Origin: Octopus vulgaris
Taxonomy: Eukaryota
Direction: 5' to 3'
Length of the DNA stretch: 64,000 bases
Assembly (NCBI GenBank): GCA_951406725.2
Contig: OX597836.1
Span: 620,001-684,000 of the forward strand
This document shows, piece after piece, positions 1,366 through 59,633 of this stretch. Below the pieces are notes generated by a model that saw nothing but the letters and a program-made list of their open reading frames with translations, was not told the origin of the DNA and ran no database searches. A program made the translations under genes and the position numbers. Position 1 is the stretch's first letter, and each line of letters opens with the position of its first letter.

Positions 1366-2288
1366 CGAACAGCAAAACAATTTTAAGAAAAAATATTTGA
1401 AAATGTAGAGTACATTTAGCTAGATAAGTTTCTAAAAATATTAATGGAAACCCAACAAAATTATGAGAATGAATATCTGGTAATAATTTTCTGTTTTTGT
1501 ATGTTATATATATTTCTTTATTTTCCAACGGTTTAAATTTTTAGGACATCATTTTTGAGATGTCAAAATGAAAAACAGAACTTGCTGGCTGCTTTAGGGA
1601 TTCTCTTTAAGTAGCAAACAAAATATAATGACTTCATATAAAGTAATAAAGAGCACTGGAAAACAGAGTGGACATAGAGAAGGGTGTATGTGTTTTATAT
1701 ATATATATATACACACACTCACACATACATATGTGCACTCATATTCATCCAAGTTATCCTTATTATTAGGCAGAAATTTCCACAAGCCTATGTGAGCTGT
1801 ACATTCCAGAAAAATGCAGTTGGTTAAAAGGATAGGTTATATATTGAAGGGAGACCAGGTCATGCCATACTGTCCTGGCCAATCCCGCCTAGTTGTCATG
1901 AGTTATTACTGCATAAGCAGTAAAAGTACTGAGCAGAGCATTGATAAAAAAAGAGTCCTAGTCCTAGTCATGACCTTTGTGTCTTTTTTGTCTTACATAA
2001 ATCTAATGTATTCTTTCATTTTTTTTATGGTAAGGTGTAATTTGATGAAGATTAAGCTGTTTCTAGCAGAGCAAGCAACTATACAGAAGCTGCCTTTATT
2101 ACACTGCAGTACAGAGTAAAATTCCTCTCACAAGGTATGAGGTCAGTGATAAATATATATATATATATATGAAAGGTTTGATAAGTGCCAACACACAAAA
2201 CCCTTTGCCTTTTTGTCACTCTGTTGCTTCTGCTATATATATATATATATATATATATACGAGAAAGAAGCAACAAGAATGGATTAGT

Positions 2289-2379
2289 TTTTAGTACAAT
2301 TGTTTCATACAAAGACAGGCTTTATTACAAGTTGCAAAAATTGCAGCAGATAAAAGTGTCCCGTACTCATCAGCTAAAA
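2289..2379 (-). ncRNA. Type I hammerhead ribozyme motif, canonical core, long helix II, palindromic minimal helix III
   Basis: Minus strand: UUUUAG-CUGAUGA-GUACGGGACA...UGUCUUUGUAU-GAAA-C-AAUU-GUA^CUAAAA. Helix I is a perfect 6 bp and ACAAUUGU is self-complementary. Predicted cleavage between 2295 and 2294. Confidence 0.85.
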
Positions 2380-2754
2380 TACATATGAGTTCTCTAGACA
2401 TCTTAGTGGGTGAGGTTATACTCATGAAATATTGGAGATAATTCCATTAAAGGCAGATATAGGTTGTAAACAGCTTTCCAAAGTTCCTTAATGATGATGC
2501 ACAGTCTTATCACAGATTTTTAAAAACTTATTAGTTTCGAAGAGAAGATGAATTAATCCATGAATTAATCCATATATATATATATATATATATATAGTAG
2601 CATTGAATGTTGAAGTAGCAGAGGTAGTCATGGTAACAACATGAACAAGAGCAACAACAATAGCTACACTCATAGTATAAATAATAATCATTATAATTCC
2701 TATTCATGGTAATAATATAGTAATAATACTACCATTAGTAGTAAGTCTAATAGT

Positions 2755-2796
<42 letters not shown>

Positions 2797-3169
2797 GCTG
2801 TGGCAGCAGTTACAACAGTGTGGTGTAGTAGTAGTGGTGATGGTGCTAGTGGCAATAGTGCTAGTAGTAGTAGTAGTAATTGTAGTAGTAGTAGTAGTAG
2901 TAGTAATAGTAATAAATCTATGCATTAAATTCAATGATGAATTTATTTAAATTACTTTCCTTCATTGCTGTTTTTGATTTGATTTTCTTCCTGTTTATGT
3001 TTTTTTTTTTCTGCTGGGTATGGGCTGGTTTAATGTTCTGCTTAAATATGTTCTATGATACTTGTAGAAGAATATGAACATAGGAGTTATGATCCAGGAG
3101 AGGAGACAGGGCCTACTCTCACCATCTACACTAATCTATTTACTTCTCTATGATGATGATGATGATGAC

Positions 3170-3201
<32 letters not shown>

Positions 3202-3212
3202 TAATAATAATG

Positions 3213-3245
<33 letters not shown>

Positions 3246-3263
3246 TCTTTTATTATATTATTA

Positions 3264-3319
<56 letters not shown>

Positions 3320-3525
3320 TGGCTTAAAATCTGGGCTCAAGGCCAGCAATTTTAGGGAGGGGAAAGTTGATATAATCAACCTCAATGTTCAACTGGTACT
3401 TATTTTACCAACCCTGAAAGTATGAAAGGTAAAGTTAACCTCAGCAGAATTTGAACTCAGAATGCACAGACAGACGAAATGCCACTATCTTGTCCAGCAT
3501 GCTAACGATCCTGCCAGCTCATAAT

Positions 3526-3570
<45 letters not shown>

Positions 3571-5065
3571 CCTTTCTATTCTAGGTAAAAAGTCTGAAAT
3601 TTCTGTATCGTGTGGGGGAGCTAATTGCTGACATGTACCATAGTGTCCAAATGATCCTTACTTTGTTAACCCTGAAAGGATGAAAGGCAGGCTTTGAACT
3701 CAGAAGATAAAAAGCCAGAAGAAATGCCTGTTGTGCTCCCCATTATGATAAAAATGATAATTTTGGTACAAGGCTTGCAATTTTGAAGGGAGGGGACAAA
3801 TTGAAAACAGTGACACTGTTTCTTGACTGGTACCATATATTTTTTTGTCCTTTTATCCAAAAAACAATGTCAACCCTTGTGAGATTTGAACTCAGAAGGT
3901 TAAGAGCTAGAAATATGCCACTAAACATTTTGTCAAATGCACTAATGATTCTGCCATCTGAATAATAATAATAATAATAATAATGATAATAATAACAAGG
4001 GTTTCTGATTTTGGCACAGGGCCAGCAAATTTGAGGGGAGGGATTTAATAGATTACATTGTAGCAAGGGCCATAAGGACTAAAAGGAATAGGGCAGAGTT
4101 ATGCTTCCTCATTCTGTTGTCACTAGGTGGCGCTGCAATGGCACTTCTGCTAGGGAGGTATAAAAACCCTAGAGGGACAACGAATCTTTCTCTTGTTTGC
4201 TGCTGCCCCTTCTAGGCAGGGCTGCTTGTCAACAAACCCAGCCAGTGGGGACAACCAGCTGCTTCGCCTTTGGCCATTACTGATGCTGCATTATGTTGCA
4301 GGCACATTTCTTACTCTCTAATGTTTCAGCTTCAATCACATCAGATGTAACTATGTTCGTACAACTCTTGTTTGTTCACATTCACTTTTCTATGAACACT
4401 GTTATAAAAACTTGGCTGTTTAACTTCAACTTGATGTTGTTTGTCACACCACTACATGCACCTTAACACAAACAGGGACACAGGATTCATGTTGACTCTT
4501 CACTAAAACATCAATCCCCAGTACTCAACTGGTACTTTATTTATCAAAAAGTTGAAACGCATGGTCAACCTTGATTGGATACAAATTCAGAATCAAAGGG
4601 TCATAACTAAACAGAACTAAGCATTTGTTCAATGCTTGGATGGTTTTGCCAATCCACTTCTTTTATAGACCACAAGGACCTGGATTACTTTTGAGGCATA
4701 AAATCATGCTATTTCAGGGATTAGGTACTATCAATTTAGTTAACCCTTATACTTCCTTGGAACTACATCTTTTATTAACTTCAGAGAGGACAAAAGTCAA
4801 GGTTCACCTTGGGTGGATTGGTTCTCTGAATGTTAAGAGATTTAACTAAATACCATTCAGCCAGTCAGCATTGAGGTTGACCATCTACTGCTTCCATCAC
4901 ATCACCAGCATTAATAAGAATAATATCTAAGAGAGACACAAGGTCACACACTTTTCAAGATAGAATACAGTTGATTAAATTTGCTCTGTACCAGACTGCT
5001 ACTTTGATTTATTGATCCTAGAAAGATGAAAGGGAAAGCCAACACTTGTGAAATTCAAACTCAAA
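3320..5065 (-). mobile_element. Second head-to-tail array of the same SINE family (about 6 copies, one interrupted by the LTR)
   Basis: Same consensus as 320-1365. Further decayed minus copies at about 8940-9280, 16560-16900, 28180-28600 and 42880-43030. Confidence 0.8.
4059..4456 (+). mobile_element. Probable solo LTR inserted into a SINE
   Basis: Begins TGTAG and ends CTACA (5-bp terminal inverted repeat), 398 bp, with a TATAAAAA box near 4159. The SINE to the left (...atagattacat) resumes at about 4509 (catcaatccccagtactc). TSD is ambiguous. Confidence 0.6.
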
Positions 5066-5207
5066 ATATTTATCTTAATATTAGATCATGTAAGAGGTGG
5101 GGGTAGAAACAAAGAAAAAACAATAATTATCTTTTAAATTGCACAAGGTAAAAAAAAGGAAATATATATTTTTAAAGTAACTGTTGTATTATTAAAATCA
5201 TCATCAC

Positions 5208-5282
<75 letters not shown>

Positions 5283-6839
5283 ACAGAACATCTTTGCCGG
5301 GGGATGTAATAGGTGTTGTCAACCTTCAACAACCAGTGGACTAAAGCAAGGCTCTTCATTCAGATTTCAATAACTTTGTTAACAATTTATGTGGTTCCAA
5401 GCAATGCAAATTTTCTATATTTGCTCTGCTTTCACATTTACTCCTATCATTTCGATTTGGTTTGTTTGTGAGCTTCATACTTTCTAGGGTTCAACAACAA
5501 GAAATACAGTTCTCTCCTTCAATGGCCAAAATCTTTTCATTTCTCACTTTAAATTATATTTTATTATTATTATTATTATTGTCATCATCGTCATCATCAT
5601 AATTATAATTATTCCACTTTCTATGTCATCTTCTAAAAATATATATTTAAAATATAAGATTTGGTGGGGGAGAGGGTAGGTCACCATTTTCCCAATTTCA
5701 GTTGTTGGGCTGCTCTGGCAAATAAGCTTACTGGTATAGAAACTTTATGGAACAACGTTAAAAAGCCAATAATGAGTTTCAATAATGCTGACCATATTGT
5801 TTCTTCAGGTGGACTGAAAAATAACAAGAGAAAATAGATGTATAAAATCCATACTGAATGAATATTATTGGGTGGGGGTGTGTTGAGTTTTTGTGTTTTG
5901 ATTCTTATTACTTTTTTGTTAACTTTTATTAATGAAGTAGTAAATTATTTTGTAATTAGTAAAACACATACACATATACACAAACAATGCAAAATCATAC
6001 ATTTACATATATATGTTGAAATATTTTTAATACACACTCATACACGTTACAACTGAAAGTCTAGAAATATCCCATGCCCTAAGTTTCACATTCCTGCTCT
6101 TTCAGTTGGTAATCTGAGCTTGTTTTCTCTCGACTTATTGATGTTTCAATAAATTTTTGAATATTGAACAGAGGCTATCAGAAAAACTTTGGATAATTAA
6201 AGAGAAAAATGGATCAGACTACAAGCTGAAAGAGTAGAAATGTAAAATTCAGAGCTCTGGCAATTTAGAGCCTTTCACTTTTAATGTATTACTGAATACT
6301 TTATATGTTTGCATTGAGTTCTATAAGTAATCACTTCTAGGTAAATGAACAGAAATGTTTAAATAACAAAAATGTGATGCTAACTTTCTAGAACACCAAC
6401 ATGATAAAATGAAATGTATCATTGAAGGAACAATGCAAAGGATATGAAAACAACATATGGTTTTGTGTTATTTTTAAGCTAGTTCCCAAGGAAGATCCTA
6501 TATAGCACAAGCTCCACCATATTCTCAAACACCAACAATAGGAAATTTATCCGAGAGAAAATACCTTAGGGAAAAGTTCTGCATACCAATTACACATAGA
6601 AAAGAATCTCACATTTTAACATGAGTTGAAAAATTATGATTTTTTAATTGAAATTATTAGTTCAGTTAGTACACAAATCATCCAGATAAGGGAGTTATGG
6701 CTGATAAATTAAATAGTTGTAATTGTTCAAAAATAAAGCTGATTCAGATGAGAGTGGATTTTGTTTTTAAAATCAACAGGTGAAAGTAGCAGACAGATTT
6801 CCTCAGCAAAGCATATTCTGTTCATTTTGGAAGAATTAT

Positions 6840-6896
<57 letters not shown>

Positions 6897-6993
6897 ACAG
6901 ACTAAGGAAAGAAATTCCTTCAAAGGAGTGTGTAAAACATCATATACTATGAATATAATATAATATGAGATAACATTAAAAAAATCATTAAAA

Positions 6994-7089
6994 AACCAAA
7001 AAAGCCAACAATTTGTTTTGACTTATATACATTATTTGATTTATAAACAATTCATATCCATGTATATAAGTCTCTTCAAGGTTTTGGTT
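6994..7089 (-). ncRNA. Decayed hammerhead motif (C3U, G12A)
   Basis: Minus strand: AACCAAAACC-UUGAAGA-GACUUAUAUACAU...AUGUAUAUAAGUC-AAAA-CAAAUUGUU-GGCUUUUUUGGUU. Helix II is a perfect 13 bp. Adjacent to (TA)n at 6844-6890. Confidence 0.55.
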
Positions 7090-7948
7090 CAAAAGACAGA
7101 CAAAATTCCATGTGAAAAGACGGCCAGATTGCAAAAAAAAAATTGATTCAAATACTAATCTTTAGGAGTGTGAGTGTTAAGTACAATTAAAAAAAAAATA
7201 TAATGGACAAAATAATTAAGTAAATCTACAACTATTGAAATATATTTGTATATATCTCAAATACTATAAATCCATATTTATTTAGTTTGAAGATAATCTT
7301 TGGCTATTTTAATAGCAAACAACAATAATATTATATATGTATATAAATGAATTAAGTGTCAGGGTCTTACTTAATCTAGAGATGGTAATAAACCATGTAA
7401 ATAAATACTTATTCTCTAAATGTGCTGATGCATATTCGAAAAAAAAAACCTACTTCTAGTATTACAGCTAATGATTTATTTATATGCAATACTTTGCATT
7501 TTTTTATAATTACACAAAAAAAATTACATAAATGATAATATAGTATTATATTAATATAATGAGTCTTCTCTTTTATTTAAAGTTATTGATATAGAGTAAC
7601 TAACAAATGTTCTATATTCAAGTAGTTTATCAGAGGAAGAATTCTGTAAAAAATATGAGCAAAGACTTAGAACTCTGATAACTACAACCCACATTATCCC
7701 ATAGATATAGTAATGGATATCAAAATATTACTAAGTTTTTTTAGAAGTAGCCAAATTTGAAGTTACTTAAATAAGGATTATTCACAGTAACTAACAAGTA
7801 AATGTCGTTATTTACATATATCATGAAAGGAAGAACTCGGGAAATAAAATAAAATAAGATAAACAAAAGCATAAGGATTGAGTATCGATCCATGATAAAT
7901 ATAATCAATATTATTTTTTAGATAAAGGACTATAAATAGTATATAACC

Positions 7949-8003
<55 letters not shown>

Positions 8004-9530
8004 CATACACACATGCACCTATATAAACACAAGAAGGAAGAGAGAAAGAATTTTTTTCAGTTAATTGAAGACTTTCAACTCATCATATAACATATGTAAG
8101 ACCCTACAAGATTTGTATTTAATACGAAGAAAGCCTCTCAGAGATTCTCCACCCAACCAACCAGCCATATTGTTGAAAGTCTTAATCTGTGTCACTGTAT
8201 TCTCTCCATTTTTATATCTATGCTGATCACTTCTAAGTTTTGTTATCTGAGTAGAATTTTTTTCTCTGAGGAAATGTAATATTACAGAAATAAGTTTGTT
8301 GCATCTACCATTTGGCTTTAAAGACAAGCGCCTCTCCAATTTGCATTGTCTTTATTTAAAAAAAATTTTGACAAGCTGACCCCATTGAATTCAAATACTG
8401 AATGTTATCTGAGGTAATTTTAAAAAGATGTTTGCAACCTCTCGACAAATTATTTCTATTAGAAGCTGATGAAAGTGTAGTAATCTAAGCTTAATTGATA
8501 TATGTTAAGTTGATTCCACAAGAGCTCTATGTATATTTTACATAAGCACACACAAACACATACACACATGTACATACGTGCACACACACACACACACACA
8601 CACTTTAATTCAATGAAATGCAATATTACCTTTAGCAGCAGAACTTAGAACATGAGGGTGTTAATAAAAGTAGAAACTAACTAAAGGTAATTTAGTTTAT
8701 AGAATCGATACCTGACATTGGTACAATGCTACACACTTGTTGAAAGGAAAAACAGTTGAAAAGAATTCTAGTACAATACTGGTACATAATGTATAAACTT
8801 CTCGGATGAATGAGGGATAAAAAGCAAAAACCTCTGGTGGGTTTGAAACACAAGACATAAAAAGGGTGTAATAAAATGGTATAAAGTAATAATCTAGTTC
8901 TTTAACATTTCTGCTGATCATTACCTCCATTAATTTTATAATAATTCCTAACAGAGGGAAAAGGCCACAGATTTGAAGGTGAAGTTCAGTCAGTTAAACT
9001 AGCTCTAGTACTAAACTGGTTGTTATTTAATCAACCCAGTAATGATTAAAAATAAAGTTTACCTTGGCAAGAATTGAAATCAGGACATAAGAGAATGCAG
9101 TTAATTACCACATGACATTTATTCAATGCTCAACCAACTCTGCCATCTGCAGGACTTATTTTGTAATAATGATTTTGAATATTTGCACAAAGCCACAAGT
9201 TTGAGCTGAACAAATTCACTCCAGTATTTGACTGGTACTATTTTTTGGATCCAAGAAAATTAAAGGTAAATTCAACAATGTCACAATTTCACAATTTGCA
9301 TGATAATCTATTTTCCATTATTAAATAAGCACACTTTAAAGATGAAATGTAAGCAAGAAAGAAAGGCCAAAATGAAAAATAAGAAATAATTGTTAATAGA
9401 GATTTAAAAAAACTACAACAAAAATCATAAGTAAAATATAAATTAAGAGAAAACAAGAAAATTAATTATAAGAAAGTAAATTTTAAAAAACGAATTGAAA
9501 AAAAAAATCAACAGGCTGCACTGTTGTTAC

Positions 9531-9593
9531 CTGTAAATCTTGTTTAGCTGCCTCTGCTTCAACTCTTGAATTAAAGGTGACAAACCCCACAGG
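9531..9593 (-). CDS. cpo: Coding exon C (63 bp, phase 0/0): PVGFVTFNSRVEAEAAKQDLQ
   Basis: Minus strand reads ttctcctcctttag|CCTGTGGGG...GATTTACAG|gtaaca. It contains RNP1 (PVGFVTF) and alpha2. Intron B-C is 5,941 bp. I did not find the expected next exon (GVRFDP...LRLEFAK) in 1-9530, so it probably lies left of the window. Confidence 0.96.
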
Positions 9594-17964: not shown

Positions 17965-19662
17965 GTTGACATCACTGTATCAGTGATGTCAACCCCAACA
18001 CACTATATCGGACATAACGTTTGGTGCCCCTGATGTCTTAGCGGCAATAACCGAAATAAAACACAATTCAGCAGTAGGCCCCGATAGGTTCCCTGCTTGT
18101 GTCCTGAAGGTGTGTCGACACCAACTTGCATCTCCCCTTGCTAATCTGTGGAGAAACTCACTGGATGCTGGCTATATTCCAAAAAACCTTCTGTCCCAGT
18201 TTTCAAAAAAGGAAACAAGTCCCTTGCAGTGAACTACCGTCCGATCTCACTCACCTCTCATATCATCAAGGTATTTGAGAGGGTGGTGAGATCTCGAATA
18301 ACCCAATTTCTGGAAAGCAACAGACGGCTGATCTCTAACCAACATGGGTTCCGTAATGGAAGGGACTGCCTAACGCATCTCCTGCATCACTTTGATGACA
18401 TTTTGAGAACTTTGGGAGAGGGCTCCAACACCGATGTCATCTACCTTGATTTCAGCAAGGCCTTCGACAGGGTTGATCACAAGATCCTATTGAAAAACTA
18501 TCCAACATTGGTGTCTCTGGAAAGTTACTGAAATGGATCAAGTGTTTCCTGACAGACAGATCTCAACATGTTGTAGTTGAAGGGGTAAAATCAAGCCCAG
18601 CCAAAGTCAGTAGTGGCGTTCCACAAGGCACTGTGCTGGGCCCACTTCTTTTCATCATCTACATTAATGACATTAATGACATCATCAAGCACAGCAACAT
18701 AAAAATCTTTGCAGATGATTCCAAGCTACAGAAGGTCATAAATGAGGCGAGTGACCGGACATGCCTTCAGTCAGATCTACTGGCTGTTATCCAATGGGCA
18801 GAAAAAAACAATATGCTGCTGAACGAAGATAAATTTGAGTTAATCCACTTTGGAAAAGAGGATGCCCTGAAACTCCCATACTCCCTTCCTTCAGGTGAAA
18901 CTCTCGAGGCATCCAACAACATCAGAGACTTGGGAGTAATTGTGGACAACAACATAAGCTGGGCCACTCATATAAACACCAAAGTTGACATGGCCCGCAG
19001 AATGTGTTCTTGGATTCTCAGAACTTTCCAGTCGAGAGATATCCACACCATTATCCTTCTCTTCTCCACTTTTGCCCGACCCCACCTTGAATACTGTTGT
19101 CCACTGTGGTCTCCCCACACAAAACAAAGTATCATAAAAGTTGAAGCACCTCAAAGGGCAATCACAAAAAAGATAGATGGCATGACAGGCCTCGACTATT
19201 GGGGTCGACTAGAAAAGCTAAAACTTTATTCTCTCCAACGTCGCCGTGAGCGCTACATCATCTGCATGATGTGGAAAATATTCCATCAGCATTGCCCAAA
19301 TGATGTTGGCATCACCTTTAAGGTGCATCCAAGGCTTGGGCCCCGTGCCATCTGCCCAAAACAAAAATCGCACTCTCATCTCATAACAACAATACGGCAC
19401 AATTATTTCACCTCAATTGGCCCCGCTCTCTTTAACATTACACCAAAACACATTAAAACAGAAACAGACCCTATAGGGTTCAAGAAGTCTTTGGACAGAT
19501 TCCTTCAAGAAATCCCGGATAAACCCCCTACACCCGGATATGTCTCTGTAAACAATAACTCTCTACTTGAGTGGGCCATAGTGCCCAAATTCTGACTTGA
19601 AAGACTTCACCAGGTGGTGCTATTAAGTTAGACATGGCCTGGGCCAATAATGGCCGAATCAA
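17965..19662 (+). mobile_element. 5'-truncated CR1/L2-group LINE (ORF2 reverse transcriptase and 3' UTR), two frameshifts
   Basis: Motifs GPD, YRPISLTS, QHGFR, YLDFSKAFD, SGVPQGTVLGPLLF, FADD, RDLGV, RPHLEYC, LQRRR (ORFs 18148-18531 and 18633-19595). Frameshifts near 18190 and 18495; stop at 19595; GGCCA-ATAA-TGGCC stem-loop in the 3' UTR. Confidence 0.95.
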
Positions 19663-19757
19663 AATAAGCAACAAGAATAACTTCGGTAATTTGGTACGAT
19701 CGTTTCATACTACATCATTTTATTAAATGTTGTACATATTACGACAGTTTTAAAATG

Positions 19758-19759
<2 letters not shown>

Positions 19760-19993: not shown

Positions 19994-20169
19994 CGTTTAT
20001 ATATTTGTTTTGCAAGATTTTTGATGTGAAATCCTGTGTTGAAACAGATATTGTTGTATTTAGGAATGGTCATATTGCCAGTTTAGCCAATAAAAACACA
20101 CGCACTATATATTTGGTGTTACTTTGCTTCAGCGTTATTTATTTTTTACATTAATCTCAATCTTATTTC

Positions 20170-20214
20170 GGCCAGAGTTCTTTCATCACACTCCTGTGAC
20201 CTCATCAGTGGTCC
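20170..20214 (-). ncRNA. Minimal hammerhead-like motif with one extra nucleotide after A9
   Basis: Minus strand: GGACCA-CUGAUGA-G-GUCAC-AGGAGU-GUGAU-GAAA-G-AA-CUC^UGGCC. It lies in a ~340-bp element between TA tracts (about 19991-20330). Confidence 0.5.
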
Positions 20215-20747
20215 TTTGCTTTCTTCTTTCTTATTTGTGTGTCCCTCCTTACTAACAGTCAGCCATTTTGTATTTTGTATTTCTATTGTATGTGTCTTCT
20301 CTATGTGTGTCTATGTTTAGTTAGTGTGTGTGTGTGTGGGGGGAAGTGCCTGTAATATTTGTATGTCCTGTTTATATATGTTCGTGTAATTTGTTTTTGT
20401 TTATATATACATACATATATATATACATATATATACGTACATACATATATATTCATATATATATATCTACATACACATATATATATACATACACACACAT
20501 ACATGTAGATATATACATACATGTATACATATACACATATATGCATGCATACATATACACATACATGCATGCAAATGTATACATATATATACATACATAC
20601 ATATACATATATATATATACATACATATACATATATATACATACATATACATATATATACATACATATACATACATACATATACATACATACATACATAT
20701 ACATACATACATATACATATATATACATACATACATATACATATATA

Positions 20748-23276: not shown

Positions 23277-23419
23277 ACCTCAAACCCACAAGAGTAAAGA
23301 AGAGAGACAGAGACAGGCAGAAAGAAGGAAAATGCCACTTGTATTTGAACACTATGCAAATATTCTTTCAAAAAATCTTTTCTTTTAATTTTTCCAAATT
23401 TAATTGTTTTCCATACTCA

Positions 23420-23455
23420 CAGTTGAAAAAGTCTCAATGACTGAAACCGGTACTG
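23420..23455 (+). ncRNA. Variant minimal hammerhead (U3-A8 core)
   Basis: CAG-UUGAAAA-AGUC-UCAAU-GACU-GAAA-CCG-GUA^CUG. The C3-G8 pair is replaced by U3-A8 and ACCGGU is a palindrome. Confidence 0.65.
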
Positions 23456-23506
23456 AAATGTTTTTTATAAAATTGTTTTAACATTTTCTATCTTGACCTT
23501 TTTTCC

Positions 23507-23561
<55 letters not shown>

Positions 23562-23747
23562 AGTAGTTGAATGAATTATCTTATTAAGGATAATTCGGTT
23601 AACCGATACCTGGGTAGCAAATTCACGTCAGAAAAACACAGTTGAAGCTACATGCCAAGGGCAGAGATCACGTGCTTTCGTGTGGAAATTTGTGTGTTTT
23701 TTTAATACAAATAAATGAAAGAATGGAGTTGAACGACGAATTAACAA

Positions 23748-23850
23748 AATTCCTTTATTCTCGACATATGTTTCGAAGGCTGCATATTCCTAATTTCGAA
23801 GGAATAAGGGGTGCATTATGCCGCCTTCTCATCAGGAAAAACAAGGAACT
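23748..23850 (-). ncRNA. Type I hammerhead ribozyme motif, canonical core with GUC cleavage triplet
   Basis: Minus strand: AGUUCCUUGUUUUUC-CUGAUGA-GAAGGCGGCAUA...UAUGCAGCCUUC-GAAA-C-AUAU-GUC^GAGAAUAAAGGAAUU. Helix I is 13 bp with a 2x2 internal loop, helix II is closed by GAAGGC/GCCUUC, and ACAUAUGU is a palindrome. Predicted cleavage between 23763 and 23762. Confidence 0.9.
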
Positions 23851-23968
23851 TATGTCAGCATCAAGATGAACAAAAAATAAAGGAATTTTGTTAATTCTTT
23901 CATTTATTTATTTATATATATATATATATGTATATATATTTATATATGCATATATATTTATATGCATA

Positions 23969-24795: not shown

Positions 24796-25180
24796 CATCA
24801 TCATCATCATCATTTAGCGTCCGCTTTCCATGCTAGCATGGGTTGGACGGTTCAACTGGGTTCTGGGAAGCCAGAAGGCTGCACCAGGCCCAGTCTGATC
24901 TGGCAATGTTTCTACAGCTGGATGCCCTTCCTAACGCCAACCACTCCGTGAGTGTAGTGGGTGCTTTTTACGTGCCACCGGCACAGGTACCAGATGAGGC
25001 TGGCAAATGGCCACAATCGGATGGTGCTTTTTACGTACCACCGGCACGGGGGCCAGGCGTGGCTGGCAACAGCCACGATCGGATGGTGCTTTTTACGTGC
25101 CACCGGCACGAGGTCAGTTGGGGCGGTGCTGGCAACGGCTATGTTCGGATGGTTCTCTTACGTACCACAGACACTGGTAT
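24795..25180 (-). mobile_element. SINE-like repeat with a (GAT)n RTE-like tail and internal ~61-bp tandem units
   Basis: gtggttggcgttaggaagggcatccagctgtagaaac...ccaacccatgctagcatggaaagcggacgctaaatgatgatg on minus. Family copies at about 22445-22703, 25240-25400, 30430-30670, 32975-33115, 38915-39140, 48585-48700 and 54270-54450. Confidence 0.8.
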
Positions 25181-33545: not shown

Positions 33546-33649
33546 AGAACTGGAGCCTGGTGCAGCCTTCCAGTAGGTCATCCCAGTCTAACCATCCAAC
33601 CCATGCCAGCATGGATAATGGTCGTTAAATGATGATAAGGATATATAAA

Positions 33650-34110
33650 TATATATTATTAAATACTAACGTATTTGCTTTGTGTATTTTCCAGTGACTG
33701 CAATAGTGTAGAGGAGTATATAACTCTCATGTTGCCTTAGTTAAAACACCTTAGATTCATGGATAGTTGAGGTATCTCACCCTCAATCCTAATTGGGTGT
33801 GATGGACATTGATGTTTCACAATCTCTGTGGCTTTTCAACATCATGTACCCACCTGGGTTAAAGGCGAGTCACCTAGCCATTCCAATGACTTATATGCTC
33901 ATGGCTTGGAAAATCATGAGCTGGTATGCCTGGATTTTACAAGCCATGAGCATATGTCATTGAACTGGCCAGGTGACTTGCTTTCAACCCAAGTGAGGTA
34001 TTTTAACACTGATGTCATAAGAGTCATATACTCTGCTATGCTATTGCAGCTACCAGAAAATACACAAAGCATATACTTTAGTATATGTATTCAATAATAT
34101 TTATTATACT
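33650..34110. mobile_element. Older imperfect fold-back element with a hammerhead-like motif in the unpaired part of the left arm
   Basis: 33851-33918 is inverted at about 33933-33995, and 33673-33760 is inverted at about 33995-34075. Centre near 33926; (TA)n on the right. Confidence 0.7.
33800..33844 (-). ncRNA. Variant hammerhead-like motif (U3-A8 core), weak helix II
   Basis: Minus strand: UGAUG-UUGAAAA-GCCACAGAGAUUGU-GAAA-CAU-CA-AUGUC^CAUCA. Helix I is a perfect 5 bp, helix III is 4 bp, helix II is poorly paired. Confidence 0.5.
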
Positions 34111-36897: not shown

Positions 36898-37083
36898 CAT
36901 ATACATACATACATACACACACACACATAGGTGAGGCATGGCTGTGTGGTAAGAAGGCTCTGAGTTCAGTTCCACTGTGTGGTACCTTGAACAAGTGACC
37001 TCTACTATAGCCCTGATCCTTGTGAGTGGATTTCTTAGATGGAAACTGAAGGAAGCCAGTTATATATATATATATATATATAT

Positions 37084-37556
37084 GAAAAAACAAGTCAAGA
37101 TAGAAAATGCTAAAATAATTTTATAAAGAACATTTCAGTACTGGTTTCAGTCATTTTGAGACCTTTTTAACTGTAACGATTAAATAATTAAATTTAGAAA
37201 AATTAAAAGAAAAGTTTTTTTAAAAGAATATTTGTATAGTGTTCAAATATAAGTGGCATTTTCTTTGTTTCTGCCTTTCTCTGTCTCTCTTGTTTACACT
37301 TGTGGGTTCGAGGTCGTTATGAATTCACAACGACCTCGAACCCACAAGTGTAAACAAGAGCGACAGAGAAAGGCAGAATGCCACTTATATTTGAACACTA
37401 TACAAATATTCTTTTAAAAACTTTTCTTTTAATTTTTCTAAATTTAATTATTTAATCGTTACAGTTGAAAAGGTCTCAAAATGACTGAAACCAGTACTGA
37501 AATGTTCTTTATAAAATTATTTTAGCATTTTCTATCTTGACTTGTTTTTCCATATA
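37084..37556. mobile_element. ~470-bp near-perfect palindromic (fold-back) element, probable Penelope-like pseudo-LTR hairpin
   Basis: Arms of ~235 bp are centred on GAATTC at 37321-37326, with only a few mismatches and one ~10-bp indel. Flanked by (TA)n. A single-arm relative lies at about 23275-23510. Confidence 0.85.
37457..37504 (+). ncRNA. Variant minimal hammerhead (U3-A8 core), right arm of the 470-bp palindrome
   Basis: CGUUACAG-UUGAAAA-GGUC-UCAAAAU-GACU-GAAA-CCA-GUA^CUGAAAUG; same family as 23420-23455. The left-arm copy (37131-37178, minus) has UUAAAAA, i.e. a G5A change. Confidence 0.6.
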
Positions 37557-37587
37557 TATCAACTCGTGTGTTCCTTTTTATCCTAAT

Positions 37588-43220: not shown

Positions 43221-43589
43221 CTGAAAATAGACAAGACATACATAAGATATGCAGCATATTTGAATTATATACATATCAAAATACATATAAAATTTACAAT
43301 TAATTAAGCAATTAAACACTTTCAAATAGAATAAAAGGTCCTTTAATGTGAGTGGTGCAATATATACATGTGATTACATGAGAAAATATATATGTGCATG
43401 CATATATTTTAAGTGTTGGGTCTGTTCCTAGCAGTAGGCTGATAAAGCCCAGTTTCTGCCTATGGATACCTGATGTCAGCCATGGTAATTACATAGTTGT
43501 CACTGGATCTACCTCAGGAATTCCTCAGTGTACATTGAGTATAAAACAAATGATAGAGGCAGAAAATGGAATACATGGGAAACTTTATT

Positions 43590-43733
43590 GCTCACAACAA
43601 TTGTTTCGATATATCCTGCATTGATCCCTTGCAGCGGGAATACTACGACTACTATATGACTACTTGCGGTGCGTCCCTTGGTGTGGAAGCATCTTTTTAG
43701 GTGATGTAATAAGAAATATCACATTAAATGAAC
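43590..43733 (-). ncRNA. Relic hammerhead motif with a very long helix II region
   Basis: Minus strand: GUUCAU-UUAAUGU-GAUAUUUC...GAUAUAUC-GAAA-C-AAUU-GUU^GUGAGC. All three helices can form, but the 5' core has 3 substitutions. Confidence 0.35.
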
Positions 43734-43918
43734 TCTGTTTTGCTCAAATTTGATACAGCCTGTTGTTTGTGACTGTAAGTTTGAACTGATGGGCAGGAAT
43801 GACACAGGACAGATTCTGCTGCAAATTTATAGATACAGACAGGGAGTAAATAACAAAAATAAGACGAATAAGAATACGACTGTGTATATATGTATGTGGG
43901 TGTGTATATGTTTGTTTG

Positions 43919-45732: not shown

Positions 45733-47718
45733 TATGCACACACATGCACAACATACACATTAAATAAGGCCCTGATCTTGCAAGAAAATTTTCTCCTCTC
45801 TTGGTTGGACATTGACATTGCTTAAGCAGCTAGAAAAATGATCTTTTAATACCAAGTATTGGTCCCATATTTTCTATGTAGACCTCTTCAGTATCACCAG
45901 GGATTCCTCAAGCTCTGCTCAGATTACAGACCTTGTTGGTCATTTTCTTCTCCCTCAAATAAACCAGCACTTTCCTAGCCTAACTGGAGGTTTATACAGG
46001 AATGATGGTCTTCTCACAACCACTAGTATATCTTGGCCATCCATTGAATGTATCAGGAAGGCCTTTCACAAGTTATTTAAAAATTTTAATCTATCTCATT
46101 CAAAAACTGTACTAAAGTAGCTAACCTCTTTATCTAAGTTTATATCTTTATAATCATCTATATATTTCTTCACTAGAGCTCATGATAAATGTGAATGTTT
46201 GTAAGCATGCCTTTACATGCTTGCATGTATGGACATATACACTTATGGGTATATATGTATGTGTGTATGTACAAACGTATGTATGTAGATACAATCACTG
46301 TATTTGAAATTGAAACAAATAGGTCATTATGCTGTTTGTCCTCTGTTTTCTGTTTTGGGATATAGAATATAGCCCAGGGTTATAATACAAAACACTATAC
46401 AGCCCAAGATGTCATACAATGGCACTGAAATTGAAACCCTGCTTGCAATGCAAACTTCTTAAGCATACAACCGTGTCTGTACATAATATGTGTGTGTGTG
46501 TGTGCGTGCACGTGCATGCCACACACACACACACACACATGCACTCACACATATCATATAGCGGTGGAAGGAGGTAAACTGATTAAGACAGTAACGGAGC
46601 ATCAGTTGGTGTTAATCTGAGATGGCCAAACCCCACATCACCCAACATTACACCATGTCATTTTATATCACCTGTACAGTTAATCAGCTTAAATAAGATA
46701 TATATCTTTCTCGTTTAATACTTTAACAATATTAATTACACTCACACACCTTAAAGCAATGTCACATTGTGTTGTTATTGCATTATTGGCGTTATGAATG
46801 GTTTGGCTTGAAGGTATAGCAGATAGATGGTGTTGGTAGAATCCATTGACAAGTTAGAGGATCAATTCTTGTCAGTGGTATCGTAATCTTCAATGACTCT
46901 CTGGATATATGAGTGTAAATAGGCAACACATGGTGCTTTTGTTCATTGCTAATCAACAACCTGCTCAATATAGTATCCAATCAAGTATCTTTTGGTAAGC
47001 TCATTATTGTCTTAGACATAGAAACTGCATTAATAGTTAAAGAACTGTGTACTCAGTCAATCTGCTTAATAAAACAGCAAACATTTCCCACAACAATGTA
47101 ACTTTCCTGTGGTTGCATGACCTGCAGAATGCCACAGCCATAAACTTTCTACTTTATCTAAAGCAGAAGCAATATGAACTACTCTGGATATGAGATAATC
47201 ATAGATAGCCATGAATGGATGACAGCAACTCGGAACACAAACCAGTAGAGAAAACCATTCTACTTTTGATACTATGAATCTTTATTTTACTGCTGGTGAA
47301 TTATTAGTGACTATCAATGAACCACTTATGATGATAACCCTATGATATTTGCAACTGTATAGTTACTCATCCTTACTTGATGTGTCTAGCAGCTACATTG
47401 CCCTAAACAGACATCCAACAAGCTTTAAAATAGGGAGCGAGATATGGAATATCTACATTGTCAGTTTAACTGTGTAATTATTAACAATATCTTTTACTAT
47501 CTCTAAACTAGTAAAATAGGAAGTATGTGAGCCAGCAAGGCAGTTTCCATGCTGCATAGTTGGCTCCTCATCTGAAAATACATTCTAACAATCTTTTACA
47601 ATTTGAACTAAATAATCACTGAGGTCACTGAGAGAAGTTCGTAGAGTTGCAACAGCACTTTCAGCATACAATCTTCTATTCATGTACACATCTCTCTCTC
47701 TCTCTCCACACACACACA

Positions 47719-48864: not shown

Positions 48865-48937
<73 letters not shown>

Positions 48938-49165: not shown

Positions 49166-49243
<78 letters not shown>

Positions 49244-49362: not shown

Positions 49363-49394
<32 letters not shown>

Positions 49395-49411
49395 TATATA
49401 TATATATATAA

Positions 49412-49498
<87 letters not shown>

Positions 49499-50534: not shown

Positions 50535-50879
50535 CAAGCTCTCATTGATTCTTTGAAGTTCCACTTGGAAAGAAAAGTCGGGGTGGGGAGGAGAGTACTA
50601 TCTCCCAGTGAGTTTGCAAAATGATTGGTGACTGCATCAGAAATGGTTAGAGTGAACTGACCTGCTTTAAGTATGTACCTATAAATTGGAGAGCAGGTGG
50701 GAGAGCTTGTATCTTTACTGGTTAGGATAATTCTGGATCTGCAGTTTCCTTGATTGGCCCTAGTTGGAGTTTCTCCTTTATCAGGAGGACTCTATCATTC
50801 ATGTTATCACATACTTTGTATATTGTTTCCTGTCCATGTGATGCCCACCTCATCTATACTACTGTGACTAATAAAAGAA

Positions 50880-50948
<69 letters not shown>
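50535..50948 (+). mobile_element. Probable LINE 3' end with AATAAA and (ATT)n tail
   Basis: Unique sequence ending in ctaataaaagaaattatcattatcatt(att)n; no clear protein motif. Confidence 0.35.
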
Positions 50949-52883: not shown

Positions 52884-52956
<73 letters not shown>

Positions 52957-55687
52957 AACACAGACACACCATCACACAAAAACACACACATAGACACACC
53001 ATCAATTTCTCTCTCATTCTCTCATCCTCCAACCACTACTTTAGCTCTCACATAATTTGGGAACTGACAAATTGATCGTGAACTGTTTTAACACCAAGAT
53101 CAATAAATAATTTAGTCCAGCCAAGTAACATTTTCCTGATAAACTTACAAAAATTACTGACTACAAACACACACTCACTTGCAAAATCATGTATGTACAT
53201 GCAAAATAACTGCATGTTCGTATGTGTGTATATATGAACATATTCATGTACTTTGTATATCGGGAAGATATGAATTAATTTGATCGGAAATTCATTGAGT
53301 AAATTGATTCCAACATATTACTTGCATTTATTTTAGCAAATTTTTGAGTATATAAAGCAGTATCAAATCAAATAGGATTTAAATTCAGGTGATCAAAGGG
53401 CAAAATTGAACTCTGGAAAATTTTAACATGAACAATTTAGCATTTCATGTTACACACACACAGACTTGTTGTGCACACACACACACACACACATACACAC
53501 TCGTGTGCACACACACACACACATACATGCACACACACACACACACACACACACACAATACAAAATATACATTTTTATAATATAGGTGTAAACATTTCTT
53601 CTGACATTTTGAACTTGGTTGTTCACCTAAGTATCATGAAGCTATAAAGTGCAAAGAATTTGTGTTCATGCCAGAAAATTAAAAACACAGAGTTAAAAGG
53701 GATAGGTAATGAAGAAAGTGCTCTCCCTTATCCCATGTGTCCCCTATATCACTTTCATGTACCTGTTTCCCCAATTCTCTCTCAGTGCATACAAATGTCA
53801 ATCTCTCAACATTTAATGGGAAACTATTTAGATACAATCAGACTATTTTCCTCTTTTCATTTCTGAACATTATAGATTTTATACAGGAAATATTTAATAA
53901 TCATACAAATATTTTTGATTAATTGCCATCAGTTTCTTCAGTTGATGAACTAATTAAGAGTATTCCTAAACTTCCAAGGTCACCAACAAAAATACAAGTG
54001 TTGTATGAAAGGACAATATGTGTACCAAAAATTACCACTGTCAACAGCATAAACAATAAGTAACTGAATTTTATTTTCAGGAGATTCACAAACTTATAAG
54101 CCTCTAGATTTAGTTTCTGTAGTTTCTGTAGTCACACTCTGAAGTGGCTGTCAAGTATTCTCTTTGATTCTGAAATTCTTTCTACTACAAAGAAGTCAAC
54201 TAAAAGTCAGGGGCACCATTATACTACTGAGGCATCTTGATTAACCTGGGTTATTTGAGAGTATCACATCATCATCCTCATTTGATACCCTTTTTTCCAT
54301 GCTAGCATGTGTTGGATGGTTTGACATGAACTGATGAGCCAAAGGCCTGCACCAAGTTCCAATGTCTGCTTTGGCATGGTTTTTACAGCTGAAGGCCCTT
54401 CCTGAAGCCAACAACTTCATAGAATATACTGGGTGCTTTTTTACATGGCCCCAGTGCTGGGGAGGTCCCCAAGTACCTACAAGACAAGGCCCCCTAAACT
54501 GAATGGGCTATAGTGAGGTATAGTGATATGAAATTATAATAGAGGGTCAGGAGCCAATCTAACTACATTGCTAGTTACAAAACATGTATGCCTCATATTA
54601 TTCAAGCTACTTTTCTGAATGGTAGCTCAGCTAGTGGAGGATGTTTTTATTCTTTGTGATATCATCTGGCATTAGAATAGGAGTTTATAGACACAAGTTA
54701 TAGTTTCCAGTAAAATTCAGCTTTACTACATGTACAAACAAATCAGGTGGAGAAACTATATCTGTTGCTGGATTATAAGTGGAAGAACAATGCTCCTTCC
54801 AAAGTTGATCCCCTGAAGGGACAGCTTTATGCTAAGAGAAGAAAGAGCAGCAGAAGAGATTTCTTGTTACAGAGGAGCTTTATGACTACTTACATTTCAG
54901 AAGGGAGTGGGAGTGATTGGGTAGAGCTAGAAAGAGATAAAAAAATAGTGATGATGAGGTGTCATTGTGAATGAATGAGGCACAAGTTGGAGACAGAAGT
55001 CAGTAGGATAGAGGGACCAGGAGTGTGTGTGTGTGTGTGTAGGTGGAGATTGTAAGAAAGAATGGGGAAGTGAGAGATGGAGAATGGGTGATGAAAGGAG
55101 AAGTAGGCAACCACTGTAAAGATTGGGCAGGGTTGAAGGGTGGAAGTAGGGAATAGCTGATGATCAATGATTCAAGTGTTGAGGGAGGAAAGGGGAAGTA
55201 GGAGATGACAGACATTGGCAGAAGAGTGATGATGATACTATAGACAGGAGAAGGATGCCATATGATTGGGTAGCATACAGGTGTGGGTGGGGAAAAGAGG
55301 CAAGTGTAGCACATGAGGAAAGTGAGAGCTGTGTGATGGCAGAGAAGTAATTTGGCAGGTCAGTGGCAGTGGTGGTGGTGGTGGTGGTGGACTGATCAAT
55401 GAAAGTGAGGGTAGAAAGAACAGTATTAAAAGGTGAAGGATGGGTAACAGGTGAAATGAATCCAAGTAGTAAGAAAAGAAAGTAATACCAAGTTAGAAAG
55501 ATCCTGAATGGTGGCGGTGTTTTGAGGGGGAGAAAGAGAACTGGCTGAAGGCTCCAATTGTGCAAATGTATACACACATACAGTGCTACTAGAATTCAGG
55601 TTGATCAAGGTGGCCAGGTCTTCTCAAGAACTGCATATCACCAATCATACAGCAATAAGTGTGTGTGTGTGTGTGTGAGTGTCTGTA

Positions 55688-55735
<48 letters not shown>

Positions 55736-56869
55736 TACTTGGAGGAAAGAAACGAAACGACGCGAGGGCGCTCAGTCATGTATACACACATATAAAAAGA
55801 GAGGGAGACAGCGACCGTGTGTGTGTAAGCATGACTGTGGGGTTAAGATGTTCATTACACAACTACATGATTTCAGGTTGAGAGCTACTGCTACACAAGA
55901 GTGAAGGAGGCAAGTGACTTTTACAATAGCCTTGCATTGACCGGTCTCTTGTATTTATAAAAAATTAAAACAAAAATACAAAGATGAGGTAAAAACAAAA
56001 CAAACAGGGTGCGTTAAGTTGTAACTCAGGGAAAACTGGAAGAAGCCTTTAACATTTCAAGCATAAGTTCTGGATACAGCAGGAAGTGGCTCTTGCTGTA
56101 GAAAATCTGCCTCAACGAGTTCCATCCAACCCATGTTAGAATTGAAAAGTGGATATTAAAACGATAATGATATAATATATATGTATAGAGCATTATATAT
56201 ATATTTAAGTGGTTTTGTGTTCTCACATTACTCCAGTCAAAAGCTTGTCTACAAACTTCCTAATTTTTTTTATAAGAGTAAAGAAAGGAATCTAGCAATA
56301 AAAGAACCCCATTAATTATACCAAAGATTTGCTAATGTATGTTATATGCATATATAACATTAATGCATAAAATAAATACATCATATCATGCATATAATAT
56401 ACAAATATATATAATGTATATCTAATGTACAAGCATTTTATATAATACATAAATATATATTTTCATACAATATGTATCATATATACCATCTTATGTGTTT
56501 ACATATAAGCTTAATAAGTATATCATATATCATCCATATATTCATACATAAAAGCACATACATATTATTTATAATATATACTAGCTGCATATATATGCAT
56601 AGTATACCTAAAAAATATATCTATTAAATACAATATAAATAGTATATACAAGAACAATATATTTTTTATACTTAATGTATATACGTATATAATATATAAA
56701 TATGTATATATATATCTAAAATATATCTGTATATTTTAAATATGTAAGGTGTGTGTGTGTGTGTGTGTATGCACAAATATGTTAACATAATCTTATACAT
56801 TTATCACTATGTATGTATATATATATATATATATAACAGTATCAATAAAATAGATGGAAGGAGAAAAGA

Positions 56870-56930
56870 TTTTATTGGGTACAACACATGTTTTGACCTG
56901 TTCTAAGTCTCTTCGGGTACATGAACAAAA
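56870..56930 (-). ncRNA. Decayed hammerhead motif (U4C, G12A)
   Basis: Minus strand: UUUUGUU-CAU-GUAC-CCGAAGA-GACUU-AGAAC-AGGUC-AAAA-C-AUGU-GUU^GUAC-CC-AAUAAAA. The interrupted helix I has the same architecture as 23748-23850. Located between TA tracts. Confidence 0.55.
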
Positions 56931-57421
56931 AGTTTTACAAGAGATTTTCTCATTCAGTTTTACGTACCGCTATATGTCCATCATATGAAGTTCCTGCAAT
57001 TATCTACGGATAACAATAGGTAATCGAAACTGTGCTGGTGCTTTACTCATCATCTATTTATACATTTTGTATAATTTCTCCACTGTATATATATATATAT
57101 ATACATATACACACACATATATATACACACACAAACACACACACATACATACATACTTACATACATACATACATACATGCATGCATGCATACATACATAC
57201 GCACAAAACTCACAGGCCTGGAGTCACTCTGTTACTTCTACTAAATATTGATATATATATATATACATATATATTAAATCTGTACATACTTGTATTTGTA
57301 TGGATATATAACTATATGTATACATATGCTTATATATATATATATGTATGTATGTATACACACACATATATCGAGGTATATATATATATATGTATATATA
57401 TGTATACACACACATATAGCG

Positions 57422-57469
<48 letters not shown>

Positions 57470-57536
57470 ACACACACATATATCGAGGTATATATATATA
57501 TATGTTAATTTATGTATACACACACATATATCGATG

Positions 57537-57581
<45 letters not shown>

Positions 57582-57995
57582 ATTAGATGAAAATAATAAA
57601 GGCTGGTCTATGGGGTTTCCCTGGGCTTCATGTCCATAAAGTGCCTAGCTTTACAGCATTTCGTCGGACCTTAACAACCTTCAGCCTTAACTATCATTAT
57701 CTAAATACTCTACTGCTTCTCTTTTGGATTTATGATTTACTGACTACATATATATATATAAATATATATATATACATACATGGGTGAGTATGTATACACA
57801 GAAACACAGAGACACATATGTAGATTTATATAGATATCATGATGATGATTATCATCATCATTCCCATCCTGCTTCCCATGCAGAACAGCTTTTCTTTTAT
57901 CCAATTAATTATATTTTTCATATTGTTTTATTAACTTCGCATAGCTGGTTTGGAACTATAGAGATAAAATTTGAAAATAGTTGCATATGAAATGA

Positions 57996-58054
<59 letters not shown>

Positions 58055-58318
58055 ACGAATGAGAGAGAGAGAGAGAGGGAGGGAGGGATACAAAAGTATT
58101 ATAGATACATGTGTGATTGTATTCATATATATACATCTATGTACATGTAAAGATATATGCATACATAAATTTAGGAATAGACAAGCTCACACAATCATCT
58201 GCCTTTGTATTTACACATATTGGTACATTTGTATACACACAAATATAACAAATATCTATCTGTCTATCTATACATAAACATGCATACACACATATGCATA
58301 TATATATATACATTTGTT

Positions 58319-58520
58319 GAGCTGGCAGAATTGTAAAAACACCATACAAAATGCTTAGGGCATGTCTTCCTGCCAAACATTCTGAGTTCAAATTCAGCCA
58401 AGTCAACTTCGCTTTCCTCCTATTGGAGATGAAATAAATACCAGTATATCAATGGGGCCAATATAATTAATTTACCCCACTCATAAAATATTAAGCCTTG
58501 GACCTATTGTACAAAAATAA
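58319..58520 (+). mobile_element. Meta-type tRNA-derived SINE, plus orientation
   Basis: gagctggcagaattg...ttctgagttcaaattcagccaagtcaacttcgctttcctcc...aaataaataccag. Other plus copies at about 50275-50470 and 51700-51780. Confidence 0.8.
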
Positions 58521-58556
58521 TGTATATGATATATATACTATCTATGCCCACAAGTT

Positions 58557-58623
<67 letters not shown>

Positions 58624-58777
58624 TAATTATACAAACACACACACTGACTGTGGTCATGCTGGTGCATTGCCTATACATTATATATATGTATATATATATA
58701 TATTTATACATCAATATGTTAAATATATATAAATATTTTTATGTATATATTTATCATTCTTTAATAAGAATAGTATT

Positions 58778-58824
58778 GACTGTGACTTCGAAGTTTCATC
58801 CAACTCAGCGATTACCAGATAGTC
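58778..58824 (-). ncRNA. Relic hammerhead motif
   Basis: Minus strand: GACUAU-CUGGUAA-UCGCUGAGUUGGAU-GAAA-CUU-CG-AAGUC^ACAGUC. ACUUCGAAGU is a palindrome; the 5' core and helix II are degenerate. Confidence 0.3.
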
Positions 58825-59633
58825 TGATGGCAAAACTTCAAAATTCCTTGTCAATACTATTCCTGCTAAAGGATAAATTTATACTTTACCAAATGCATTT
58901 CGTAATTATTCAATTTAAAGTAAAATTGTTTTCGTTATAACATTAAAAAAAAATCATTAATATATTTATATATATGTCAATATGTATGTATAAACATATA
59001 AAATATATATACGCATATTTATATGTACATATATTTATGTGTGTGTATGTATGTCTATGTATGTATGTATGTATGTATGTATGTATGTATGTACGTATGT
59101 ATCTATCTATCTATATGCATGCACGCACACACACACACACACACACATACATGTTTGTATACGTATCTGTTTATATTTATATCTACATATATTTCATACA
59201 TCTGAAATAAATATTGCATTTTACATATATCTATTGACATAAACAAAAGGATGCATCTACCCATATGTAAACCTATACACATAGGTGCTTACATGCACAC
59301 ACTTGCACATATGTACACCATATGCAACATATTAGTATAATTTTTTAAATTGAAAGCTTTTGAAATAAATTATATGACATGGGATATTTTGTGTATCCCT
59401 ACGAATGAAAGATAACTCATGCCCATGTGTTTTCGCATTGTTTTCAATGTAACTTATTCACCTAAGTATAGTATACCTATAAACACACAAACACACACAT
59501 ACACTGAGATAAAGTTATAAAATAAATAAATTACATATGTACTTAATTAAAAATTAAAATAAATGGTAAAGTAATTGAAAACAAAAAGAAAAAAAAAATT
59601 CATACAGTGAGAAACAGAAATGTTAAGATTTAC

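Follow-up and report, generated by a model that had tools for sequence, protein, structure and literature searches.

Hammerhead ribozyme motifs in a 64-kb stretch of the Octopus vulgaris genome as probable marks of truncated Penelope-like elements

The 64,000 nucleotides (nt) of Octopus vulgaris DNA analysed here, referred to as the window, span positions 620,001 to 684,000 of contig OX597836.1 (assembly GCA_951406725.2; G000:C23:620001-684000 in the 2.8-Gb assembly of 227 contigs that was searched). Hammerhead-like sequence is present at every site named in an initial annotation of this DNA, at the positions given there. Ten repeat families, lettered A to J, account for the 12 sites, and nine of these families were searched directly in the genome. 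The motifs are very probably type I hammerhead ribozymes in the pseudo-long terminal repeats (pLTRs) of Penelope-like elements (PLEs), with four families representing 3' ends of 5'-truncated coding elements, one a likely retrozyme, and four others, unlinked to coding sequence, likely PLEs as well. Judged by protein motifs, the elements at 2289 and 23748 appear to belong to the Hydra clade, those at 23420 and 37131/37457 to be Neptune-type, and that at 20170 to be Nematis-like. The elements are as follows:

2260-2562, minus strand: family A, 5'-truncated 3' pLTR of a young, putative Hydra-clade PLE, between two TA runs
2289-2379, minus: family A hammerhead, intact, with a 60-nt helix II domain
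6893-7460, minus: family G, an older element; hammerhead (7001-7085) decayed (C3U without A8, G12A), with a 53-nt helix II domain
19657-19759, minus: family J, a hammerhead's 3' half (19689-19706), from a family A relative inserted at the end of a long interspersed nuclear element (LINE)
19995-20400, minus: family D, 3' end of a PLE with a C-terminal CCHH-type GIY-YIG domain and a short CxxC linker (Nematis-like)
20170-20214, minus: family D hammerhead, with an extra base before helix II and a one-pair, non-palindromic helix III
23277-23507, plus: family C, 3' end of a probable Neptune-type PLE, with a U3-A8 hammerhead (23420-23455)
23559-23900, minus: family B, 3' end of a second young, apparently Hydra-type PLE, with a short inverted 5' piece
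23758-23840, minus: family B hammerhead, intact, with a 54-nt helix II domain
33644-34105, minus: family E, old retrozyme-type element with a ~337-nt head-to-tail unit and inverted 5' pieces
33800-33844, minus: family E hammerhead, U3-A8, canonical helix sizes
37065-37560, fold-back: family C pair, a decayed copy at ~37136-37173 (minus, G5A) and a copy at 37462-37499 (plus)
43410-43860, minus: family I, an older element, whose hammerhead (43592-43704) is decayed and has a helix II domain of 77 nt
45842-46096, plus: Hydra-type reverse transcriptase (RT) fragment beside a TA run (tblastn, 43.5% over 85 amino acids (aa) to the family A protein P0001, E-value 1e-14)
56835-57090, minus: family F, with an inverted tail; hammerhead (56879-56920) with a U4C core, and G12A in the window copy
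58740-58980, minus: family H, an old fold-back element; decayed hammerhead (58778-58824)

The initial annotation had counted about ten type I hammerheads, and the motifs are real, with a frequency far above that of dinucleotide-shuffled sequence. A strict type I descriptor found two in the window, each on the minus strand (2295-2373 and 23763-23835), where 60 local dinucleotide shuffles gave a mean of 0.0, and a wider descriptor, which admits U3-A8, U4C, an extra base and a helix II of up to 95 nt, found three against a mean of 0.05 and a maximum of 1 in 40 shuffles. Both core halves are intact in six of the 12 window copies (2289, 20170, 23420, 23748, 33800 and 37457), core mutations are present at 6994, 37131, 43590, 56870 and 58778, and 19700 has no 5' core; half of the copies are decayed or truncated, and the remaining sites are degenerate or short-helixed for the strict descriptor. 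Rfam at gathering score gave no match in the whole window, and its E-value scan gave nothing beyond microsatellite-driven miRNA noise among the 150 of 352 matches listed. In other parts of the genome RF00163 does match motifs related to these (6 of 73 scored). The strongest of the Rfam hammerhead matches in the genome, at locus L031 (45.5 bits), is canonical, with no TA flank within the 300 nt viewed.

A search of the window for repeats was dominated by TA runs. The failure of half of the window copies under the strict descriptor and the silence of Rfam in the window favour the motifs being chance matches in AT-rich, microsatellite-rich DNA. The shuffle controls, however, speak against chance, as do complete majority sequences in the families (below) and a sample of unselected DNA, 60 stretches of 10 kb (600 kb) chosen in advance, which held 18 descriptor hits in nine stretches (7 in one array) against 0-1 in five shuffles. 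Chance was therefore rejected, with virtually no probability left to it. The density in this sample, ~15 hammerhead loci per Mb under the wider descriptor, suggests roughly 20,000-80,000 loci with an intact-looking hammerhead genome-wide (Poisson range on the 9), mostly invisible to Rfam and, in the case of family A, also to Pfam. With 3 hits in 64 kb against 18 in 600 kb, the window is ordinary for this genome, and the idea that it is exceptionally hammerhead-rich was dropped. The sample also held 10 true copies of window families, once 15 family G matches had been discarded as TA low-complexity artefacts; a weak family G match at window position 60621 was rejected on the same grounds.

The nine sites searched in the genome are multi-copy. 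For each family 40 candidates were scored and 15-30 kept as loci, and the first-look counts of genome candidates are lower bounds: at least 1173 for A (2289), 1463 for B (23748), 1740 for C (23420), 1770 for D (20170), 219 for E (33800), 686 for F (56870), 882 for G (6994), 262 for H (58778) and 890 for I (43590). Best non-self identity among the scored candidates grades from 100% in A and B through 95-98% in C and D to 85-91% in E-I, which implies families of different ages, as had been proposed. The majority sequences of all nine families possess both core halves, the cleavage dinucleotide and paired helices I-III, with 3-7 bp in helix I and 4-10 bp in the helix II closing stem. Different sequences preserve the same pairings across the nine families, the 3-8 pair being C3-G8 in seven and U3-A8 in two. 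Helix III, described as palindromic throughout, is so in six of the nine majorities but not in those of 20170, 6994 and 56870. Core-intact copies, counted among the best matches to each window copy rather than random copies, number 34/36 in A, 21/25 in B, 40/53 in C, 14/24 in D, 11/24 in E, 12/15 in F, 13/19 in G, 4/18 in H and 4/13 in I.

Helix II forms a domain of 53-77 nt in families A, B, G and I, and helix II measures 43-94 nt in 18 of the 31 descriptor clusters over all sampled DNA, some of which are chance hits or split families. Folding support for these long domains is mixed (z +1.0 to -4.4, with several at -2.2 to -4.4), that of family A being modest (z -1.6 against mononucleotide shuffles). 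A further hammerhead family, among the RF00163 matches (L032, L033, L036), has a 77-nt multibranch helix II domain and flanks related to families F and I.

Insertion into TA repeats, the setting ascribed to all of these elements by the initial annotation, was measured as a TA run that starts no more than 25 nt from the 3' limit of homology, which is a rough measure for old families. It is near-universal in A (30/30), B (25/25) and C (23/25), but partial in D (11/20), E (8/20), F (9/15), G (8/15), H (5/15) and I (8/20), against a background of 5% at random positions. Inverted upstream partners, in line with the fold-backs noted earlier, are present in all nine families (A 9/30, B 17/25, C 12/25, D 10/20, E 12/20, F 5/15, G 9/15, H 8/15, I 12/20). 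The 3' ends are not scattered: relative to the predicted cut, family A ends at +35 to +45 in 22 of 30 loci and at +140 to +156 in the other 8; sense copies of family B end at +199 to +217 in 23 of 25, and its detected inverted partners at +49 to +55 in 8 of 8; and family C ends at +52 to +61 in 18 of 22. Every mapped 3' end is downstream of the predicted cut, and the tails measure 110-150 nt.

Family A copies share a common 3' end at the TA run and have variable upstream break points. In two long copies, 1.6 kb of non-coding sequence leads upstream into an endonuclease (EN) domain of the GIY-YIG type at the C terminus, for which the genome holds at least 16449 candidates, many of the 150 scored lying in open frames of 947-984 aa. 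All eight long copies fetched have the long open reading frame (ORF) and a downstream hammerhead, and six have a same-strand upstream hammerhead as well, giving a unit of pLTR with hammerhead, 957-aa ORF, 1.6-kb 3' untranslated region (UTR) and second pLTR with hammerhead, with a period of 4650-4659 nt. The predicted cut sites are located 210 nt before the start codon and 1567 nt past the stop. The piece present in the window (2234-2562) matches the full-length copy L119 in its 3' pLTR at 97.6% identity, and the scored candidates are 99-100% identical to the window copy. The protein P0001 (957 aa, L120) possesses RWK (residue 37), DKT (residue 124), YRDD, CxCX5C, CxxC and CxH and lacks CCHH; RWK, DKT and the cysteine motifs without CCHH define the Hydra clade (PMC8557442, section 11), to which family A is assigned by these motifs. 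A Pfam search of P0001 returned no family; over 484 aa, the protein shares 36% identity with a database entry that bears RT families. Between two intact copies dN/dS is 0.08 in the RT, 0.16 in the EN and 0.86 in the insert that separates them; the ORF, present in many intact copies of ~950 aa, is under purifying selection. This insert (residues ~480-815) is Asn-rich (28%), of low complexity and near-neutral, and family B has a similar one. EN remnants at L119:203-472 and L151:2626-2814 closely resemble the published Hydra-1_Obim protein. Part of family A is present in 19 of 23 sequencing-run sets, the kind of run being a guess and no RNA set being listed among those that contain it, and four assembled contig sets cover 25-29 of the 30 bins of a full copy, in contigs that carry no information on ends, strand or level.

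Families B, C and D also lead upstream into coding sequence. In family B, with scored candidates at 97-100%, a second Hydra-type EN is present ~0.5 kb upstream (L053/L055/L213), its visible coding part being a thumb-side segment and the EN. Three divergent ENs from this lineage (L213, L119 upstream and L154) have no CxCX5C linker; they are otherwise Hydra-type and 35-46% identical to that of A. In these ENs (L154:2415-3140, L119:950-1400, L213:1288-1500) a conserved peptide without cysteines occupies the linker's place. The nearest database proteins to the family B EN carry the linker, and a search for full-length linker-less relatives found two distant proteins, both with it, which is weak evidence. 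Family B is filed as a Hydra-like variant that presumably works like Hydra; it may instead be mobilised in trans by an A-type protein, since only broken B ORFs were seen. Family C has upstream an RT, a CX4CxxC linker with a long spacer and a CCHH EN (L228-L251), with hammerheads on both sides of the ORF at L232, and appears Neptune-type by eye against the rows of Fig. S2 in PMC8557442. Family D has an RT and a C-terminal CCHH-type EN with a short CxxC linker (L133/L212), and this reduced linker and CCHH EN fit Nematis by eye in one frameshifted copy (Fig. S2, PMC8557442); four short family D peptides had no match in the part of that supplement compared. The family is best described as Nematis-like, and may belong to another lineage. 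As the EN is C-terminal in A-D, a Naiad origin was rejected.

The initial annotation's connection to Penelope has thus become direct in four families, each traced to RT and/or GIY-YIG genes of its own in longer copies, from which it follows that their short window pieces are 5'-truncated autonomous PLEs. It had viewed most of the elements as stand-alone retrozymes, non-autonomous and dependent on an unseen partner that moves them in trans. Only 33800 fits that description: in family E the 3' end joins its own start in a unit of ~337 nt, eight of 20 loci exceed one unit, one dimer locus has two hammerheads, candidates are 76-85% identical, and neither a PLE protein upstream nor an ORF common to the 20 loci was found. 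Family E is likely a retrozyme moved by the same PLE enzymes. The retrozyme view also draws on the four families without a linked ORF, on a young array in unselected DNA (L272, described below), and on a report that treats animal retrozymes as non-autonomous PLE derivatives (10.64898/2026.07.22.740005). It remains improbable as an account of most elements, given the coding sequence of A-D, the kinship of J to A, and the upstream DNA of F (1.1 kb) and G (0.8 kb), which is unique sequence shared among copies before truncation rather than short-unit repeats. Families F, G, H and I are also likely to be truncated PLEs.

Two further retrozyme-type elements were seen outside the window. The array at L272:2097-4770 (G000:C1, 20.00 Mb) consists of 359-nt units of 97-99% identity with seven canonical hammerheads; its 5' part is inverted, TA runs are present on both sides, and its two ends are separated by 44 nt, as in a PLE tail. 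Another family (L308:9560-10000 and L324:7380-8420; also L283 and L032) has U3-A8, a canonical helix II, inversions and TA flanks.

How such elements would move can be outlined in part from the anole PLE, whose protein nicks AT-rich DNA and starts reverse transcription at two internal RNA sites, producing a 'tail', and whose hammerhead cleaves only with protein present (PMC11167929). A more-than-unit RNA would be made from the octopus element, the GIY-YIG domain would nick (TA)n DNA, and the RT would start at either of two internal RNA sites that lie downstream of the ribozyme (+35 or +140-156 in A, +49-55 or ~+200 in B), usually stopping early and so leaving only the ribozyme-bearing end. As every 3' end is beyond the predicted cut, the copied RNA must have been uncut there or re-ligated. 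Cleavage, itself predicted from the sequence, is most likely weak, and would occur as a dimer through the palindromic helix III or with the element protein; such motifs had no activity as monomers and low activity as dimers (PMC4209133). It might release unit-length RNAs from transcripts that read through (the cut at the upstream end falls 210 nt before the start codon), or make circles.

Several points weigh against placing all of these hammerheads in PLEs. For B, C and D the copies seen were frameshifted or truncated, none of them with a full-length intact ORF; no ORF was found in the 15-20 loci each of F, G, H and I, with upstream extension carried out for F and G, a negative that is weak either way because the loci, selected with a short 3' query, are for the most part truncated; clade assignment was by motif or by eye; TA flanking is only partial in D-I; and in the anole PLE the hammerhead is dispensable for insertion in vitro, catalytic mutants having no effect (PMC11167929). 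The last point also favours the hammerheads being passengers of the pLTR, irrelevant to transposition, with the long helix II a neutral insertion, which would be compatible with PLE identity. The position of all 3' ends downstream of the cut, the modest fold of the family A domain and the success of Naiads without canonical hammerheads (PMC8557442) agree with this. Such passengers seem unlikely, although not remotely so, as compensatory changes have preserved the cores and helices throughout nine unrelated families and three PLE clades, family A copies are nearly all core-intact, and several long domains fold well. The fold is under some form of selection, which need not come from integration itself.

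With hammerheads in PLE pLTRs as the preferred explanation, a wider, frankly tentative and less likely reading would join the observations: a mass expansion of the Hydra clade, still under way in this genome, whose hammerheads have acquired a structured helix II of 43-85 nt as a protein-binding or regulatory module that escapes standard descriptors and Rfam; a lineage landing in (TA)n without the cysteine linker (family B, TA-flanked in all 25 loci), so that the linker would not be what aims PLEs at TA; and retrozymes with the same integration marks, moved by these enzymes. To our knowledge, the Hydra clade has never been assayed in vitro, and it has so far been known from few, short elements. 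Family A lends itself readily to such work, since it occurs naturally in many intact copies, has (TA)n as a sharp target and shows two 3' ends that have been mapped; family B bears on the idea that the linker drives TA targeting; and retrozymes with PLE-type ends support PLE-driven mobilisation.

Among the remaining features of the window, family J (19700) is 92-93% identical to an inverted pair in L036 and 72-78% to family A pLTRs, which identifies it as a truncated relative of A. It is found at the 3' end of a LINE reverse transcriptase at 18145-19650 (plus; two overlapping frames of 128 and 372 aa). The absence of any PLE RT ORF from the window, stated in the initial annotation, does not hold in view of the 85-codon Hydra-type fragment at 45842-46096. 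A 62-nt tandem repeat occupies 24960-25177, with a longer array in L124.

The system is not a new one: hammerheads in PLEs, cores of the U3-A8 type, pairs in inverted orientation, TA as a target and a Hydra element from an octopus have all been published (PMC4209133, PMC8557442, PMC7229834). The minimal PLE hammerheads of PMC4209133 resemble those here in having a short helix I, a helix III that is palindromic, an additional base preceding helix II and the U3-A8 variant, as well as in opposite-strand pairs 100-700 bp apart, in motifs that are mostly single and derived from truncated PLEs, and in many families per genome; their helix II of 7-8 bp, however, contrasts with the domains of families A, B, G and I. 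Family A is alike to the Hydra clade, as described for Hydra-1_Obim of Octopus bimaculoides, in its C-terminal GIY-YIG domain without CCHH, its RWK, DKT, CxCX5C, CxxC and CxH motifs, its insertion into (TA)n and its type I hammerhead close to the 3' end, the last two of which are also reported for Hydra-1_Obim itself (PMC8557442). It differs in its 4.65-kb unit, against 'generally <3 kb', with a 957-aa ORF, Asn-rich insert and 1.6-kb 3' UTR, and in its thousands of copies, many with intact ORFs. The helix II domains of A and B (54-60 nt) exceed the ~26 nt at most in 26 published Hydra rows (File S2, PMC8557442), although two plant PLE-X elements in that article offer a precedent for a long loop 2, and the tails of 110-150 nt exceed the published 30-40 bp. 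The lineage of family B, without the cysteine linker, also departs from the Hydra clade as published.

By eye, family C is alike to Neptune in its long CX4CxxC linker and CCHH EN, and carries a U3-A8 hammerhead, and family D to Nematis in its short CxxC linker and CCHH-type EN. The Poseidon element PAc of Anolis shares two 3' ends downstream of the hammerhead and AT-rich targets, but belongs to another clade and has a tail 30-40 bp long that falls inside the ORF start, whereas the tails here are 110-150 nt long and precede the ORF (PMC11167929). Family E is alike to the non-LTR retrozymes (defined in PMC7229834; 10.64898/2026.07.22.740005) in its head-to-tail unit, canonical helices and lack of an ORF, and differs in its U3-A8 core, in being old, dispersed and mostly of 1-1.6 units, and in its PLE-type fixed 3' end, 5' truncation and inversion. 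The second of these sources derives retrozymes from PLEs, with octopus absent from its main text. A study of O. vulgaris reports 31 recently active Penelope-like families, with neither ribozymes nor Hydra mentioned in the available text, and its repeat library may already hold the window families (PMC13282606). A literature search, beyond the reach of which lay most subscription journals, brought up no article dealing with hammerheads of octopus or with long helix II domains in PLEs. New here are the helix II domains of 53-77 nt in four window families, the 110-150-nt tails, a TA-inserted Hydra lineage without the linker, and retrozymes with PLE integration marks. Set beside the published systems, the window holds no new class of system, and instead adds new families of hammerhead-bearing PLEs and one retrozyme.

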